Below, in pieces: positions 6,784 to 24,161 of a stretch of 24,161 bases of DNA (positions are counted from its first letter, which is position 1; each line of letters begins with the position of its first letter). Source of the stretch: Candidatus Heimdallarchaeota archaeon (GTDB lineage Archaea; Asgardarchaeota; Heimdallarchaeia; JABLTI01). The notes under the pieces were generated by a model. That model did no database searches. It was not told the origin of the DNA and saw nothing but the letters and a program-made list of their open reading frames with translations. The DNA lies in the NCBI GenBank assembly GCA_030614005.1, contig JAUWKS010000050.1, positions 1 to 24,161 on the forward strand, in the 5' to 3' direction. The translations under genes were made by a program, and so were the position numbers.

Positions 6784-9700
6784 TTGGTGAAATTTAAAAA
6801 ACTTAAAATGTCTTTTACAAAAAAAGCTACTTTTGTTTTAGTAGTTATGTTGAGTAGCTTGTTTTTTACTAATTTGACTTTTGATTATCAACCAATAAGC
6901 GCTCACTCAGCAATATCGTACCCTGCAGAAATCTTTTCTATTTGGAATAATACTTCCCCAACTCTTGATGGTAGTATAGATTTTATCTTTCAAGATATAT
7001 CTGAAGAATGGGCATTTGCAGCTGTTTATGATTTATATGATGAGTCCAAGGTTGTTAGTGGTAAATTGTTCTTACAAAATGATAATGAGAGTTTCTTTAT
7101 TGGATTGGATGCAACTTCGTTTGATGCTGAAAATCCAGTAACAGATTGGGGCATAACGATCTATTTTGATGTTGATCATGATGGGTTCCTTTCGGATAGT
7201 GATAAATCAATTTACTTTATATCAAACTCAACTGATGATTATGTAATTTATCGTGATTATACTCTTTCAGAGCACGGATGGACTGATGTTGAAAGCGGTG
7301 ATCCAGATACAACCCTTACAACAAGTGGTATCTATTTAGCAACTGATTTCTCACAATCCGCTTTTGAAAATGATACTGATCATAGGCAGTATGAGATTCA
7401 AGTACCTTTCACAGCAATCTCAAGTGGTCCTGGTAAAAGTTTAGGAATTGGATTAGAAGTAACAGAAGATTTTGCAACAAATTCTGCAGGAATTACCTGG
7501 CCATTTATTAAAGATAATCTCTTCAACATCAGAACACAGACAAGTGTATGGGGCGACATTGCTTTTGGAGAGGAACACAAGGATAGTTTTGGCTTTCTTA
7601 TTGAGGATAATTTGAATGTTAAAGCATCAGCTATAGGTTATAACAATGGAACATACATAACCACAGCAGATATAGACGGAAATGGTGATTTTGAGCTGAT
7701 AGTTAGTTCTAACCGAACCATTTTAGGTGATAATAATCTAATAGCAATATTCGATTACGTGAGTGGTGGTTATCAGAGGATTTGGTCGAGCTGGACAACA
7801 AGCCATCAAACATGGCTTACTTTCCCAATATTAGGGATGGCTGCATTTGATTTCAATGGAAATGGAAAAGAAGAATTATTCGCAGTAGGAAAAGCCCGTT
7901 CAATTCTTAGATTTAGTGAATGGAATGTAAGTACAAATGACTTTGAAACGAGTGAAGTAATTTTCAGTCATACAAGTCAGTTAATGGGTTACATTGCAAT
8001 AGGTGATGCTTCAAACGATACAGAAAACGATTTGGTATTTGGAGATCAAAACGGTTATCTCAATGTATTAGAATATGATAATAGTACAGATACATTTGAT
8101 CATGATGCGAGATCTTCCATGACACCAAAAGAAGTATCAGCATATAGATTACATGGAATTGGTTTAGGTGATATTGATGCAGACAATCAAACTGAAATAC
8201 TCCTTAGTTACCAATCTACTGCTGATGATTTGTTATCAGAAACGCTTTTGTTAATTTATCAGCGATCTCCTGCAAAGTATCTCGACAATCCTGATGATGA
8301 TTTGCCAGCTACTTCATCAGTTACAACTGCAGATTATTTTGGTCATACAATTCTAGTTGCTGATGTAGATAACGATGGGGTTAATGAAACAATTATTGTG
8401 GGTAAAGATTATTTGAGAGTTTTTGAACAATATTCTTTTACTGATTCTACTCCACCACTAGAATTTCTAGTTAACGATGGAATATCTGAACCACTTATGG
8501 CTGGTGGCGCAACTGTAGGTGACATCAATAATGATGGAATAAATGAGCTGATATTTGGCGCTAATAATGGCACTCTCTACATAGGTCGAGTTGTAGATAA
8601 TGGAACAGCATTAAGTTTTCATTTAAATTGGTCTGCTGACATAGGAAGTAGCTTAGGATACCATGGCTCAATGCTCGTTGAAGATTTCGATGGAGATGGA
8701 ACAAATGAGCTTGCGGTTGGAGATAATTTTGGCCAAATACTGATTATTGGAAAAGGAGAAGCACCCGAATTAACGATTACAAATCCAAGTTCTGGCTATG
8801 TTTCATCACAAGACAATGTTCTAGTGACATGGGATGCCTCTGATGACCATCATGCATTACACTATATTGATATTTATGTTGATGGTCTTTTTAAAAATAG
8901 ATTTGGTGGAGCACAAACAGGGGCAATTGTGTATCTAACTCCTGGTCAGAACAAAATTGAAGTTGATGCAAATGATTTCTCAGGGTTAAACACAAGCAAA
9001 TTTGTAGCTGTGAAATTTGATGTGAAAGCACCACAAGTAACAATTACTAGCCCTATAAACTACTTCGAAACAGTGCTTAGTTATGTTGATATAACCTACT
9101 ATAATACTGATCCCGATGAAGATTTTGACTATTACAAGATATATCTCAATGGTGCTGAAATAGAAAGTAATACTTCAGATGAATCTTATCGTGTAGATCT
9201 ATCATCAAGTGGTCAAGGTGAAATGAATATTACCGTTGTAGCCATCGATGAGACTTTGCTAGAAGGACGCGCATCAATATTTGTTATCAGAGACATTTCT
9301 AGCCCTACTATAATAATTTCATCTCCGGTTGATGGAGCAGCAATAAAAACCTCGGAACAAGAATTTACTTGGACTGCCAATGATAGCTATACTGACGTTG
9401 AATATTTTGACATCAAAGTTGATGGTTCATTCTATGACACTACAACAGATTATTCAGCAATTATTAATTTTGGAATAGATAAAGACTTTCTAGTTGAAAT
9501 TATTGCTTATGATTCATTAGGACATAGTGCTACCGATTCTGTTACAATCACTCGAGATACGGTCGATCCTACTGTAGTTTTTGATCCTATAAGCTTACCA
9601 ACATTAATAGATGGAACGTACTACACTAACAATCCGAATCTCTCTTTATCATGGAATGCTACTGATAATGAATTAGGTTCAGGGATAAGTGAAAGTAGAA

Positions 9701-17598: not shown

Positions 17599-18753
17599 TT
17601 AAGCTAAAACCAATGGGGATTCTTTTTTTACCCCTGGAATAGAAACTCCTTCTTTCATTTTCTTTAAGCGAAGAATATCTGTGAATGCTTCCAAACGTGT
17701 AAGAAAACCTGCTTCTCCAGTATGGGCATCTAAAGTGATAATCATTAAAGGTGTATCAGATTTAATTCTCTTCGAAAATTGTTTCACATATTCTAGAGAA
17801 ACAGAAACCGGTCCACAGATGAAATTTACCAGCATTAATACACCATCTATCCTTTTATTTTCAAGATAGTGCATTGTCGTTCCGACAAGCTCATGTTCGA
17901 ATTCAAAATAGAGATAATCATTTTCTCCGAGATAATATTTTTCCTTCTCTTCTTTTGTAACATTATCAATGTCTTTTACCATTAACCCAAAATCATCATA
18001 TGTTAAACGTTTTATTTGACGTTTTATTACTGAGCGAGGCATTTGTTGAGCAGTAATAATATCTGCACCCAGTTTTTGCATTTTTTTTCTCATTTCAAAA
18101 GAAGCGAACTCATCATTGATAACATAAGGGTGACTTACTACTGCAATTTTCAGCATTTCTTCACCATCGGGAATAATGGGCGGATCATTAAGAGAAATTT
18201 CAGAGCGCTCCCATTTTGCTAAATCCTCTTCACTGATAATTAAATTCTTTAAATATTTCTTATCCGCTCTTAATCCTTGTACAGTTGCGTTTAGAATCTT
18301 GAATGGGTTCTTTGTGAAATGAAATCCTATTTGGAATACTATTTTTAATAAGCGTACTACTCCATGTCTTTCTCGAGAAGTCGAGTAGTATGGGCCAAAA
18401 ATAGGTGGTGCATTTTCGAAAGTTGCTTTTATAATATCTGCTAAAGCAATGAATTTTGGGCAACCAACTTCATTTTTCTTTCTGCTTGCAAATCTTGGAA
18501 CAAATAAGTAGTCTACTTTATCTTGTAGTTCATGAACGTGTCCATAGAACAATTTCGCTGAATAACAGTCATCATCTAATGTAGATTGAATACCATCAGT
18601 TTTCATTTGTTTTGTTGTAGGAGGGGAAATAACAACTTCTGCACCTAGTTTCTCAAAAAAAGTCGTCCACATTGCCTCAAACTTATAGAAGAGGAGTGCA
18701 CGTGGAATGCCAACGCGTTTCTTCTTTTTTTGTGCAGAAAGTTTTTTCGACAT
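17599..18753 (-). CDS. DUF2229 acyl-CoA dehydratase activase-related subunit (reduction-domain-like)
   Basis: VGIPRALLFY, DDCYSAKLFYGH, GCPKF, FICGP and DAHTGEAGFLTRLEAF motifs. ATG 18753 has an AGAGGA RBS; the ORF is open up to TTG 18810. Confidence 0.88.
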   Translation of the reverse strand: MSKKLSAQKKKKRVGIPRALLFYKFEAMWTTFFEKLGAEVVISPPTTKQMKTDGIQSTLDDDCYSAKLFYGHVHELQDKVDYLFVPRFASRKKNEVGCPKFIALADIIKATFENAPPIFGPYYSTSRERHGVVRLLKIVFQIGFHFTKNPFKILNATVQGLRADKKYLKNLIISEEDLAKWERSEISLNDPPIIPDGEEMLKIAVVSHPYVINDEFASFEMRKKMQKLGADIITAQQMPRSVIKRQIKRLTYDDFGLMVKDIDNVTKEEKEKYYLGENDYLYFEFEHELVGTTMHYLENKRIDGVLMLVNFICGPVSVSLEYVKQFSKRIKSDTPLMIITLDAHTGEAGFLTRLEAFTDILRLKKMKEGVSIPGVKKESPLVLA

Positions 18754-18974
18754 CTTTATTTTCCTCTTTAGATTGACTGATGGAAACTTTTTATAATTCT
18801 TTCCTTTCAATCCATTATTTGTCGTTCGACAGAAATTAAGCCTAATTTTTCTTTAATAAAGAAGATTTTCTTTCTCTTTTTTCCCAGAACTATTTCTCGA
18901 AGCTATGAGAAACCTTTTTTAATAGTTTGAAAACAACTAAACTGGACATATAAATTGATAAAAAGAGGATACAA

Positions 18975-19226
18975 ATGTCAAGGTTTGATGTTGAAAGAAA
19001 GAAACCTTTGGATATACTAATTATTTCCAAAAACAATAATGAACTATTTGTACTTTTAACCGAATACCTAACATTAAGAAATAATTATGATGAACCTTTA
19101 GATGCTAGAAGAATGAGAGAAAGAGCAGAAGAATGTTTGCGAGAAGAATTACTAGATTATGATCGCGCATACAGACTTCTTAGGCTTGCCATGAAAATTA
19201 TGAAAGCATGTAATGGTATAAATTAA
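18975..19226 (+). CDS. Small helical hypothetical protein, 83 aa
   Basis: AGAGGA RBS and upstream TTTTTAATA TATA-like box. Charged amphipathic helices; no family recognised. Confidence 0.7.
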   Translation: MSRFDVERKKPLDILIISKNNNELFVLLTEYLTLRNNYDEPLDARRMRERAEECLREELLDYDRAYRLLRLAMKIMKACNGIN

Positions 19227-19240
19227 TAGTAATGAAGCAT

Positions 19241-19954
19241 TCACTTCATTACATCATCTGGTTTTAGTGTCGTCCACACTTTTGCTTCTCCTGAGCGAAT
19301 CTTTTTGAATTCCGGTATATAGCGCAGTAGAATAATGGCTAATATGCCAAACGAATATAGAATTGTGAACGGTATTCCGTAACCTGAACCGTCTGCGAGG
19401 TAACTGTGTGGGAATATTTGGATTATTTGTGTTCCTGGACCTATTAGATCTAGAATGAAAAATATTGGTGAAATAAAGCTTACACCCCAACCTGATCCAA
19501 CACCGGAATAACCTGAGAATCTGCTAAACAGAACAATGAGTAACGGAAAAATAAAAGGTCCAATTGGCCAGTAAAAGAATATCAGCGTTCCAGCCATTGT
19601 AGCGAGTCCTTTACCTCCTTTAAATCCTAAGTAAGGCATCCAGCAATGTCCTGCAACAGCGGCTAATGCTGTTAGCACTACAAGATAATCTAAATGCGGA
19701 TGATTACGAGCAAGTGCGTATTCTACGATAGCACATGCAGCAGCACCTTTTACAAGATCGGTAGCTCCTACCATCATTCCCCACGGCCAGAATCCTGCAG
19801 CACGAATTGCGTTTCTTGTGCTAACTGAACCTGAACCAAATTCACGTGGATCAATTCCCTTCACCAATTTACAAACAATGAATGATGTAGGAAATCCTCC
19901 TATCAATAAACCAATAATTGGGGCAACAAAGAATTGCCATATAATTGATGCCAT
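19241..19954 (-). CDS. plsY: Glycerol-3-phosphate acyltransferase PlsY family (divergent active site)
   Basis: IDPREFGSGS...NAIR (motif 1), DLVKG, GHCWMPYLGFKGGKGLAT (motif 2) and multiple TM helices. Motif 3 reads RYIPEF instead of RHxxN. Confidence 0.92.
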   Translation of the reverse strand: MASIIWQFFVAPIIGLLIGGFPTSFIVCKLVKGIDPREFGSGSVSTRNAIRAAGFWPWGMMVGATDLVKGAAACAIVEYALARNHPHLDYLVVLTALAAVAGHCWMPYLGFKGGKGLATMAGTLIFFYWPIGPFIFPLLIVLFSRFSGYSGVGSGWGVSFISPIFFILDLIGPGTQIIQIFPHSYLADGSGYGIPFTILYSFGILAIILLRYIPEFKKIRSGEAKVWTTLKPDDVMK

Positions 19955-19982: not shown

Positions 19983-20879
19983 TTAATTCTTGGTATTTTC
20001 AAGCCAAGAATTCTCATATTTTCCTAGATAACCAATGGTCAAATATTTCTTACCAACGAAGTTTGCAACAATAGCACCGGTTTCTTGGATAATTATCTTT
20101 TTATTTTGAGGGTTATATTGTTGCATATAATTGGCTACTTCTTCTGCTGCTTCAGGCCAACATGTGTGACCTATAAACACGTAGCCACTTGTACTGTTGA
20201 TATTTTCTAAAGCTGCTCTACCAAATTTCTTCATCTGCTGAATGATTATTTCATCATTTGCTCTTATTTTTCCTTGGACTGTCACATTTCCTTCAGAAAA
20301 TTTTACAATCGGTTTTACTTTGAAAAAATCTGCTAGAAATTTCTTTGTTCTTGGAACCCTTCCCGTTCTCACTAGATTTTCCATAGTTGACATTATTCCA
20401 GCGTGATTTATTTCTTCCAAATATTCATTTGTCTTTTCGATTATCTCTTCAAAAGACTGGCTGTTTTGTGCCATAATTGCTGCTTCTAAAACCAAAATTG
20501 CTAATCCAACACTAGTTACTTTAGAATCAAAAATACGTATTTTCTTGTCTGGGAATTTTTGTTTAATTAAAGCTTGAGAATTAGTTGCAATTGGAGACAT
20601 TTTGTTTGAAACAAAAATACCAATCGCTGTATCTGCTTTCTGAAATGCTTCCTCAAATTTCTGAAAAATCATTCCTGGAGATGGGGTAGAGGTCGTAGGT
20701 ATTTCATTAACCGTTCTCTTGTAATATTCATCAAGAGATAGTTCCCCCGTTGGACCACAGGAATTATAAACTTTATCGGAGAAAATAATCTTTACCGGAA
20801 TAATGGTAATGTCTAATTTTTTAATTAAATCTACTGGTAAATCACAAGTATCATCAGTTAGTATTGCTACTTTTGCCAT
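19983..20879 (-). CDS. degV: DegV family (FakB-like) fatty-acid-binding protein
   Basis: AILTDDTCDLP, PTTSTPSPG, IFDSK, TGRV, LLKVKP-like FFKVKP and IGHT motifs. Length 298 aa. Confidence 0.92.
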   Translation of the reverse strand: MAKVAILTDDTCDLPVDLIKKLDITIIPVKIIFSDKVYNSCGPTGELSLDEYYKRTVNEIPTTSTPSPGMIFQKFEEAFQKADTAIGIFVSNKMSPIATNSQALIKQKFPDKKIRIFDSKVTSVGLAILVLEAAIMAQNSQSFEEIIEKTNEYLEEINHAGIMSTMENLVRTGRVPRTKKFLADFFKVKPIVKFSEGNVTVQGKIRANDEIIIQQMKKFGRAALENINSTSGYVFIGHTCWPEAAEEVANYMQQYNPQNKKIIIQETGAIVANFVGKKYLTIGYLGKYENSWLENTKN

Positions 20880-21049: not shown

Positions 21050-21445
21050 TTATTCACCTGCTTGACCGTATTTGAAATCTGGAGCACAAAAGCTTGATTT
21101 TTCACCTTTCAACCAGGCATTTAGACCATCTTTCTCATAAACAACCTTGTCATTAATCGTGAGTTTTATTTTATCAAGACACCAATCATCATCTTTTGCG
21201 GTTCGCGTTTTTTTCTTGAAACATAAATAACGGAAATCTGATTCAGTCAAATCAGATGGTACATCTAAATTATAGCTATCTGTATTTCCTCTTTCAAAGT
21301 CATCATAATGAGGTTTATCTAGATTCCATTCATGACCTCCAACGTAAAGTACAATGGGGTCATCTGTGGAGCTTTTTCTTTTTTCACTACAAGTAGTGAG
21401 TTCTAGAACAATTTTGTCAATTTTTTCATATTCTCTGTCTGTCAT
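21050..21445 (-). CDS. Stand-alone PLAT/LH2 domain protein
   Basis: STDDPIVL, DDFERGNTDSY, DDWCLDKIKL and NAWL match the PLAT/LH2 consensus (FERGxxDxF, WxLxxI, WL). No signal peptide. Confidence 0.8.
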   Translation of the reverse strand: MTDREYEKIDKIVLELTTCSEKRKSSTDDPIVLYVGGHEWNLDKPHYDDFERGNTDSYNLDVPSDLTESDFRYLCFKKKTRTAKDDDWCLDKIKLTINDKVVYEKDGLNAWLKGEKSSFCAPDFKYGQAGE

Positions 21446-22770: not shown

Positions 22771-23015
22771 TGTTCATCCCTCTAAACGATACTCTGGGAT
22801 CTTAATACTACTAAATAAACATTATACTTGTTTCACTTAAATCCTTTATCTCGAGAGATAACCTAAACTATTCGCTTCTTTTGTTTCATTTCAATTAGAA
22901 TTAAGTAAATGCGGTAATAATTAAACGGTATTTTATTCCACAAACCTTATATCTCGTTAGAATATTATACCAATGGAGATTTTCTCTACTTTAATTATTA
23001 AAATGGGTGAAAACT

Positions 23016-24161
23016 TTGAAATTAACAAAATTAATGAAATGTTTGTTTTTTATTGGGTTATTTTCTATTGGACTAGTAGCAAGTGTGATTAGTATTTCAG
23101 CACTAGTTCCACAAACGGTGGGAAATAATGCTACTTTAGCTTTAGGATCCAATTTTACTTATGCTCCACTTGAATTTACTGGAACCGTAAGTCAAGGATC
23201 AGATAGTACACAACATACGTTTAGTGTATCCTCTACTGTAACAAAGATTGAAGTTGAATTGTCATTCAGCACTTCTTATGATTTTGACTTGAGTTTATGG
23301 GATAATACCAATCGAAGAACTGGTGGGTGGACCGATGCAGATCACTCTCTAAAGAGTGACATTCCAAATGACTCCTATTCTGGTTACTCCGCAAATCCCG
23401 AAACTATTACTATTGACCCCCCTGCATCTTCTGGTACATGGAAAGTTGGTTGTTATGCATATCGTGGAACAGGAAGCTATACAATTACTGTAACAATAAC
23501 TGATACTGTACCAGACACAACTAATCCTACTGTTAGTATAACTGCTCCAGCAAACAGCGCAACTGTTAGTAGTACAGTAACAATTTCTGCTACTGCTTCT
23601 GATAATATAGGTGTAACCAAAGTTTCCTGTAATATAGATGGTGGAACTTGGACAGATGATACTTCATCTCCGTACTCTTGGACATGGGATACCACTGGTC
23701 TTACTGATGGGAGCACTCACACAATCAATTGCCGTGCTTATGATGTTGCAGGCAACTATGCTGACGATTCAGTCAGTGTAACCGTCGACAATAGTGGTCC
23801 TGGAGATAATGAATTAACTTCCGGTGTTGCAGTCACAGGTACTCTAACCAGTGTTGGTCAAACGGAAATGTGGTACATTGATGTTGCTGCAAACGCAGAA
23901 AAAATGGAATCAATATTAACTTGCGGAAGTTCTGATTTCGATCTCTATGGCAGATTAAATACTGAACCAACCACCAGCACGTACGATTGGAGAGGATACA
24001 CCTATGGTGGTGAAGAAGTTACTCACAATACTCCTGGCGCAGGTCGCTGGTATATTATGATCCGAGATTACAGCGGAAGTGGTAATTATGAATTAGCTGT
24101 AACAATAACCTATAGTGGCCCAGATACTACCCCTCCAACAATTTCCATTACCAGCCCAAGC
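23016..24161 (+). CDS. Secreted protein with alternating PPC (pre-peptidase C-terminal) and Ig-like domains; 3' partial
   Basis: TTG 23016 after GGGTGA, frame open to the window end. Signal peptide; PPC1 (DFDLSLW...GTWKVG..AY.G); Ig domain (DTTNPTVSITAP...AYDVAGN); PPC2 (DFDLYGR...AGRWYIM..YSG); next Ig domain starts DTTPPTISITSP. Confidence 0.88.
   Translation, partial: MKLTKLMKCLFFIGLFSIGLVASVISISALVPQTVGNNATLALGSNFTYAPLEFTGTVSQGSDSTQHTFSVSSTVTKIEVELSFSTSYDFDLSLWDNTNRRTGGWTDADHSLKSDIPNDSYSGYSANPETITIDPPASSGTWKVGCYAYRGTGSYTITVTITDTVPDTTNPTVSITAPANSATVSSTVTISATASDNIGVTKVSCNIDGGTWTDDTSSPYSWTWDTTGLTDGSTHTINCRAYDVAGNYADDSVSVTVDNSGPGDNELTSGVAVTGTLTSVGQTEMWYIDVAANAEKMESILTCGSSDFDLYGRLNTEPTTSTYDWRGYTYGGEEVTHNTPGAGRWYIMIRDYSGSGNYELAVTITYSGPDTTPPTISITSPS

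Follow-up and report, generated by a model that had tools for sequence, protein, structure and literature searches.

The closest described system is PlsY of Aquifex aeolicus (acyl-phosphate:glycerol-3-phosphate acyltransferase; PDB 5XJ5-5XJ9). In this enzyme motif 2 and His92 form the hole for the phosphate of the acyl-phosphate, S35, R45, K104 and N180 clamp the phosphate of glycerol-3-phosphate (G3P), S142 and H177 bind its 2-OH, and A40, T41 and N37 touch the acyl carbonyl and the oxyanion. Motifs 1 and 3 bind G3P and the mechanism runs without a catalytic base. The mutants N37S, H177Y, N180D, N180Q and E189A had 18%, 0.03%, 3.3%, 2.3% and 137% activity (Table 2 of that paper), and kcat/Km on G3P went down 650- to 2000-fold for H177Y and for an acidic residue at 180 each. 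Arg at position 41 was found in 3% of natural PlsY homologues, and PlsY-DegV fusions occur in the Chloroflexi Bellilinea and Thermanaerothrix (all PMC5700162). The PlsY enzymes of B. subtilis and E. coli accept both G1P and G3P (PMC13400652).

The presence of plsY in Asgard genomes has been published (Coleman 2019, PMC6431249; Manoharan 2019, PMC6737245) and its function there was stated as unresolved (PMC9385802); the available portions of the first two papers deal neither with active-site residues nor with the expansion of paralogues or their division into canonical and rewired forms. Gerdarchaeota were described as having no G1P dehydrogenase, with their lipid synthesis left unexplained (Cai et al., bioRxiv 10.1101/858530), and Ger homologues in Heimdallarchaeota have already been published. 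No characterised rewired PlsY paralogue, no paralogue expansion and no joint absence of GGGP synthase (GGGPS) and PlsC was found described in the literature searched. It has long been asked how the archaeal host of eukaryotes exchanged isoprenoid ether membranes for fatty-acyl ester ones.

Identity, fold and active site of the PlsY paralogue

The window is the whole stretch of 24,161 nucleotides analysed here, from a Candidatus Heimdallarchaeota genome (G000), which belongs to a Heimdallarchaeia family (f1) of 12 genomes. This family is probably Gerdarchaeales, as judged from two traits described for that group, the lack of G1P dehydrogenase and the presence of ftr/mch genes. The features of the locus, in window positions, are as follows.

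19241..19954, minus strand: plsY-fold paralogue (PF02660, TIGR00023, AF2 model, match to 5XJ5)
19802..19837, minus strand: motif 1, residues 40-51, GSGSVSTRN starting at residue 40
19646..19648, minus strand: His103, equal to Aquifex His92 of the acyl-phosphate phosphate hole, retained, 59/59 in the subfamily (role from PMC5700162)
19601..19618, minus strand: motif 2, residues 113-118 (GGKGLA), retained; phosphate hole and clamp Lys115 (Aquifex K104)
19493..19495, minus strand: Ser154, equal to Aquifex Ser142 (2-OH ligand), retained; Ser, Ala or Gly in the subfamily
19376..19444, minus strand: insert of about 23 residues between TM6 and TM7, of varying length (AF2 model and spacing counts)
19283..19324, minus strand: motif 3, residues 211-224, RYIPEF at 211; Arg211 invariant, Tyr212, Glu215 and Ala224 changed
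19983..20879, minus strand: DegV/FakB-type fatty-acid-binding protein, 298 aa (PF02645, E 6.9e-59)
21050..21445, minus strand: stand-alone PLAT/LH2 lipid-binding domain, upstream of degV (PF01477, E 7.6e-8)

The reading frame at 19241-19954 is free of internal stops and encodes 237 aa with seven TM helices, a protein of the membrane acyltransferase family in its STRN / acidic-180 subfamily. PF02660 is the sole profile match (E 2.5e-29, 102.9 bits against a cut-off of 24.1), and the score for TIGR00023, the canonical PlsY equivalog, is 95.9 bits, under the curated cut-off of 137.2. Profile searches gave no match to PF01553 (PlsC, the HX4D acyltransferase) or to PF01884 (GGGPS, a PcrB-type TIM barrel), and the fold is modelled as an all-helical membrane protein. 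The AF2 model (pLDDT 89.7, pTM 0.89) agrees with PDB 5XJ5 at Z 23.4 and rmsd 2.7 A over 195 residues (best unrelated Z 5.8); modelling on the Aquifex structure had been proposed along with the original prediction. Foldseek assigned the PlsY fold at prob 1.0, the ESM Atlas search returned PlsY clusters only, all below 0.9, and close homologues with a named source come from Candidatus Heimdallarchaeota.

The original prediction described a PlsY with non-canonical motifs, and both this and its numbering of Tyr212 and Glu215 (Aquifex His177 and Asn180) are correct. The acyl-phosphate phosphate hole is kept (His103 and residues 113-118 for H92 and G102-A107), and the GGKG at residue 113, predicted to be intact, is invariant along with His103 across about 60 subfamily members. 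Motif 1 retains Ser41 and Arg51 of the phosphate clamp (S35, R45) and the equivalent of N42, and is changed at N37 (Ser43), G39 (Ser), A40 (Thr46) and T41 (Arg47); motif 3 is changed at H177 (Tyr212), N180 (Glu215) and E189 (Ala224). The G3P phosphate clamp is incomplete, with S35, R45 and K104 retained and N180 replaced by Glu215, and of the 2-OH ligands S142 is retained as Ser154 and H177 is lost to Tyr212. Both carbonyl/oxyanion contacts, N37 and T41, are lost, for which Thr46 may partly substitute. The protein fails four features of a canonical PlsY, namely the TIGR00023 cut-off, N37/T41, the complete clamp and the 2-OH ligands. Read from the aligned residues, nothing is altered in the donor phosphate site, and the substitutions gather around the meeting point of acceptor and carbonyl.

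The motif 3 His, which the original prediction cites as important for activity, is in Aquifex (His177) a ligand of the G3P 2-OH and not a catalytic base, and H177Y has 0.03% activity. The extra loop of about 23 residues is also present, since 58 residues separate the Ser142 and His177 equivalents where typical bacterial PlsY has 35 (+23); the corresponding count is 42-48 for the Asp180 clade, which has the same motif 1 as the window clade, and 44 for the canonical copies. The loop length varies independently of the motif changes, which leaves the idea of a specificity element unsupported, and the model puts the insert between TM6 and TM7, probably the outer face if the topology is taken to be that of Aquifex PlsY, away from the active site.

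Because of the Aquifex data for H177Y and N180D/N180Q, poor activity of the window protein on free G3P is predicted. This much of the altered acceptor in the original prediction stands; G1P as the cause does not. Canonical PlsY already uses G1P, in B. subtilis and E. coli together with G3P (PMC13400652), and f1 has no recognisable G1P dehydrogenase, so G1P specialisation was rejected as the reason for the residue changes. It is unlikely, though with a real chance of being right, that the protein is an ordinary G3P/G1P acyltransferase with a co-adapted site, the paralogues differing only in a chain preference matched to their DegV carriers. Three of the four clamp residues and the entire phosphate hole are retained, N37S keeps 18% activity in Aquifex (PMC5700162), and the motif-1 Thr is moved back by one position in many bacterial homologues (Thr40/Ala41 in 39 of 56), like Thr46 here; against this, the acidic side chain at position 180 repels the phosphate of G3P, and the Aquifex H177Y mutant has almost no activity.

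Conservation and paralogues in the family

The alignment of about 60 homologues showed which of the changes define the subfamily. Arg47 is present in 58/58 and Ser43 in 57/58 members, Arg211 and an acidic residue at 215 each in 60/60, and the equivalent of Aquifex Glu189 is never retained. Clade conservation of the Tyr/Glu pair of motif 3 was therefore found for the acidic 215 only: position 212 is His in 31, Met in 11, Tyr in 10, Leu in 7 and Trp in 1 of the 60 members, and a tree from which this column was left out shows five or more exchanges between His and Tyr. Tyr212 was rejected as the defining change since it is labile; Arg47, Ser43 and Ala224 are more conserved, and the change of Thr41 to Arg47 had been overlooked in the original prediction. 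Ser154 tends to accompany Tyr212 (17/18 in the subclade by eye), but this covariation comes down to just 3 independent pairs and is not significant. The subfamily signature, as read from the alignment, is N37 to Ser, T41 to Arg, N180 to Glu/Asp and loss of E189, common to three paralogue clades, and Ser41, Arg47, Arg51, Lys115, Arg211 and the acidic 215 are held invariant across these three old clades.

The STRN subfamily forms its own clade with the nine motif columns removed (SH-aLRT 96, 22 rows; mixture model, quick search). Its branch against canonical PlsY has a support of 97, and the canonical f1 copies sit among bacterial canonical sequences. Paralogues of the Arg41 type were also found in other Heimdallarchaeia families (numbered f2 to f6 here); the wider group of f1 with f2, f5 and f6 has a support of 95 with all columns and is without resolution when the motif columns are removed. 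A common origin of the f1 and f2 Arg41 paralogues is likely from these sequences.

Every f1 genome carries at least one STRN paralogue. The His/Glu clade is present in 12/12 genomes and the Asp180 clade in 11/12, and the window clade is intact in 5/12, frameshifted in one (G005) and not found in 6, so the window plsY is an accessory, dispensable member of its enzyme set. The frameshift and the patchy presence are the points in favour of a decaying or neutral duplicate, which is largely refuted for the window copy and very improbable. Decay was rejected because the frame is open, pairwise dN/dS is about 0.1 and the signature is invariant in about 60 homologues; the original prediction would have taken sporadic substitutions as decay, and here the signature ones are conserved in the clade. 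The dN/dS values are 0.064-0.134 in the window clade, where synonymous sites are near-saturated, against 0.13-0.25 in the canonical paralogue, and on these values the window PlsY is under purifying selection.

The PlsY matches number 4-13 per f1 genome, most of them rewired. Canonical plsY, with N37, H177, N180 and E189 kept, was found in 8/12 f1 genomes and passes TIGR00023 with 154.6 bits. FakA-like Dak2 genes are present in 9/11 of the other f1 genomes and lie within about 2 kb of canonical plsY in 7, where plsY is just downstream of the fakA-like gene with degV between them where this was read. The FakA-like protein has the Dak2 and FakA middle domains in about 330 aa, without the C-terminal third of Firmicute FakA. 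Downstream of this conserved operon come genes for a GT87-like membrane protein, HerA and Mre11 (L061:8778-11560; L070; L075). Of the six PlsY-family genes in G000 none is canonical, and searches for Dak2 (FakA) and PlsX gave no match there. The operon is probably missing from G000 by an assembly gap and not by true loss, because the flanking HerA and Mre11 orthologues are missing along with it. Genomes of f2, including two on single contigs, typically have one canonical copy and two Arg41 paralogues with Gln177 and Asn180, Asn37 being kept as well; FakA is not claimed for f2 because its stand-alone Dak2 genes lack the FakA middle domain.

Since f1 keeps a canonical copy that passes TIGR00023, ordinary G3P acylation is covered elsewhere, and its place in the fakA operon speaks against an ordinary acyltransferase at the window locus, as does the invariant Arg47, which is unneeded for chain preference. 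His as the commonest residue at 212 and the 19 DegV paralogues in G000, which suggest chain sorting, speak for it.

Some further paralogues were recorded. Copies with His92 and the glycine loop and with the G3P clamp lost occur up to eight times per genome, three of them in G000 (L002, L004, L005 on contigs C71, C17, C75, with relatives), and their sequences suggest unphosphorylated acceptors. In the f1 genomes read, the universal His/Glu paralogue (L161:10001-13145) is flanked by cdc48-HTH on one side and by a 144-aa ORF, ftr and mch on the other, which may be mere genus-level synteny. Elsewhere in the Asgard phylum sample, PlsY was seen only as fusions of about 400 aa in one family and as a single copy in another. 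These fusions (L208-L218) are often found two or three in tandem, with motif 3 not recognisable and no Pfam match for the C-terminal half. A contig of bacterial origin, with TonB and T9SS genes, likewise carries a second PlsY that is rewired (Arg41, no Asn180; L186:6001-6630); plsY and gpsA stand paired 5 kb away, and comparable rewired copies recur in the representative search.

A non-catalytic or side role, in which the protein would take up, store or hydrolyse acyl-phosphate from DegV as its membrane partner, or would sense lipid, is quite unlikely. It would explain acceptor-side substitutions that inactivate Aquifex PlsY (PMC5700162) and goes with the loss of the entire clamp in three more G000 paralogues; the residues held invariant in the three STRN clades suggest instead a precise site for a second substrate.

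Neighbouring genes and the lipid-pathway survey

The degV gene ends 28 bp upstream of the window plsY on the same strand. Its orthologue (59-85% identical, and the top match among the G000 DegV paralogues) precedes plsY of the window clade in three distinct gene neighbourhoods, namely the window type with the PLAT gene, an unrelated one with a patatin lipase, and in G005 a broken degV by the broken plsY and a patatin. Because this pairing recurs, a donor derived from fatty acid is indicated, and we regard it as the best evidence; the different donor that was considered originally is disfavoured by the linked DegV together with the intact phosphate hole. In G007 and G009 degV is not adjacent to the window-clade plsY, in G001 it is split, and the C-terminal motif of the window DegV lacks its customary His. 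The 19 DegV/FakB matches in G000 have varied ligand-site motifs; Firmicutes usually hold two or three such proteins.

The PLAT gene is linked to degV-plsY in the nearest relatives only (syntenic in G001, G010 and L223). On the other side, four co-oriented genes at 14135-18810 (minus strand) encode a DUF2229 protein, a weak DUF2229 match, a BcrAD/BadFG activator, 35% identical to a 1263-aa PlsA-like ORF on G000 contig C61, and a 389-aa protein. By sequence they resemble a split PlsA/Ger ester reductase, and they could serve another dehydration or reduction. An operon link of plsY with this module was rejected, as it holds in the nearest relatives only and is interrupted by a convergent ORF. The 83-aa ORF at 18975-19226 (plus strand) is convergent with plsY with 14 bp between the stops; it is kept in G001, G010 and L223, and no family match was found for it. 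The plus strand also carries an FG-GAP / Ig-domain protein of 1847 aa (6784-12327) and a second Ig/PPC protein (23007-24161), and an FG-GAP protein similar to the former adjoins the window-clade plsY in G009.

The lipid genes were surveyed in a sample of 41 Heimdallarchaeia genomes, most of them incomplete and the related ones not independent. Profile searches found no PlsC, PlsX, GGGPS or glycerol kinase in 12/12 f1 genomes, no PF13685 match of G1P dehydrogenase strength and no convincing GpsA in the same 12, all PF01210 matches being weak. A tblastn search of G000 with GGGPS and G1P dehydrogenase from sister families was blank. GlpA was not seen in G000 by a crude, insensitive motif scan and has been reported in other MAGs (Cai et al., bioRxiv 10.1101/858530). 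A protein with a Rossmann fold near carS was rejected as a hidden GpsA, being a ketopantoate reductase, and the FGGY kinase of G000 was rejected as GlpK, being XylB-like; a TnpB-family endonuclease also lies near carS in G000 (L226:152-1363). By these searches f1 has no recognised pathway for making glycerol phosphate or the first ether bond. DGGGPS-like UbiA and CarS are each present in 11/12 f1 genomes and DUF2229 PlsA/Ger-like proteins in 12/12, and G000 has a polyprenyl synthase and several geranylgeranyl reductases. Full-length PlsA/Ger-like proteins of about 1400 aa (L187-L198) occur in f1, f2, f5 and 2/14 f3 genomes, and none was seen in f4 and f6.

In the other families, PF01553 (PlsC) was found in 0/12 f1, 0/10 f2, 0/1 f5, 14/14 f3 and 3/3 f4 genomes, and in f6 PlsC occurs together with an Arg41 paralogue. 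The Arg41 paralogues occur in f1, f2, f5 and f6, none being seen in f3 and f4. PF01884 (GGGPS) was found in 0/12 f1 genomes, as one strong match in 10 f2 genomes (and not in the two on single contigs), and is essentially missing in f5 and f6 too; f3 and f4 have a divergent GGGPS-like match.

The last distribution bears on whether the window protein stands in for GGGPS or uses some other non-acyl donor, with Arg47 and Glu215 (through Mg) binding the extra phosphate of a prenyl diphosphate and the product feeding DGGGPS and CarS. We regard this as improbable. Arg41 paralogues are present in all four families essentially without PF01884 and unseen in the two that have its divergent match, DGGGPS-like, CarS, polyprenyl synthase and geranylgeranyl reductase genes persist, and both residues for the acyl carbonyl and oxyanion are changed. 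The neighbours, however, are a cognate fatty-acid-binding DegV and patatins, an aspartate-rich metal motif is absent from the alignment, the f2 paralogues keep Asn37 and Asn180, and canonical PlsY itself could supply a lyso-lipid to DGGGPS. Prenyl transfer is a different chemistry with no known precedent in the PlsY fold.

Proposed function and comparison with known systems

The preferred reading, at about even confidence, is that the window PlsY would be an acyl-phosphate-dependent acyltransferase with an acceptor other than free glycerol phosphate. Our first choice of acceptor, a tentative one, would be a lyso-phospholipid, with DHAP or another phosphorylated polyol taking what is left of that confidence. 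Catalysis, donor, acceptor and the role of Arg47 are all what we infer from the sequence. A fatty acyl-phosphate would be made by the f1 FakA-like kinase, delivered by the cognate DegV/FakB and seated in the unchanged phosphate hole, and its acyl chain would be moved to the phosphorylated acceptor by the substrate-assisted mechanism of PlsY. Arg47 would replace Asn180 as the phosphate contact of a shifted acceptor, and position 212 would be released from reading the 2-OH. The step on a lyso-lipid may be the second acylation, which is the job of PlsC in bacteria, or the re-acylation of scavenged lyso-lipids. A lyso-lipid would fit because the reader of the 2-OH is relaxed (often hydrophobic), a new Arg is invariant, PlsC is missing and lipases are recurrent neighbours. 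The preferred reading as a whole draws on the invariant donor site, the dN/dS values, the recurring degV, the FakA-like genes of the relatives, the canonical plsY that serves ordinary G3P acylation, the low activity of the corresponding Aquifex mutants, the occurrence of Arg41 paralogues in families without PlsC (f1, f2, f5) and not in f3 and f4, and the STRN paralogue in each f1 genome.

Several points tell against this preferred reading. The mutant data are from single changes in a 25%-identical thermophilic enzyme and may not transfer to a co-adapted site; f6 combines PlsC with an Arg41 paralogue, and few independent lineages stand behind the PlsC contrast; a single acyl groove is present in the PlsY pocket. 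The clade is dispensable, degV is away from plsY in two genomes and split in a third as given above, no FakA was found in G000, and the window DegV has the altered C-terminal motif. The need for a PlsC substitute would also be removed if the DGGGPS-like enzyme fills the second position, e.g. by adding an isoprenoid onto acyl lyso-PA. No report of an acyl-phosphate-dependent second acylation by the PlsY fold was found in the literature searched. The wider idea, rather doubtful at present, is that Gerdarchaeales gave up the GGGPS/G1P entry and may make fatty-acyl or acyl-isoprenoid hybrid lipids from scavenged fatty acids, with the PlsY subfamily replacing PlsC.

To the published absence of G1P dehydrogenase the f1 survey adds GGGPS, PlsC, PlsX and glycerol kinase, none of which was found in the 12 genomes. 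The FakA-DegV-PlsY operon, rewired PlsY, DGGGPS-like, CarS and PlsA/Ger-like proteins make a small expressible set with which bacterial-type or hybrid lipid synthesis may be tested, and this set bears on membrane making in a close archaeal relative of eukaryotes, the window gene being accessory within it. Since most f1 copies are rewired, not each Asgard plsY match should be taken as a G3P acyltransferase.

On its sequence the rewired PlsY is a conserved variant within the known PlsY enzyme family. With Aquifex PlsY it shares the 7-TM fold, the phosphate hole of H92 and G102-G105, and S35, N42, R45, K104 and S142; it differs by N37S, G39S, A40T, T41R, H177Y, N180E and E189A, by the 23-residue outer loop, a C-terminal extension and a TIGR00023 score below the cut-off, and in being one of six paralogues. 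Canonical f1 plsY shares the fold and probably draws its donor from FakA/DegV as well; unlike the window copy it keeps N37, H177, N180 and E189 and passes TIGR00023. The ~400-aa fusions that make up the Lokiarchaeia-type PlsY matches are another type. PlsC (PF01553, lyso-PA acyltransferase) would have only the proposed step, the second acylation, in common with it, as its fold is unrelated and its donor is acyl-ACP or acyl-CoA. The Firmicute system, in which FakA/FakB feeds PlsY, likewise couples DegV with PlsY for acyl-phosphate delivery, whereas here there are 19 DegV in G000, 4-13 PlsY per f1 genome and a short FakA, with no PlsX or PlsC found.
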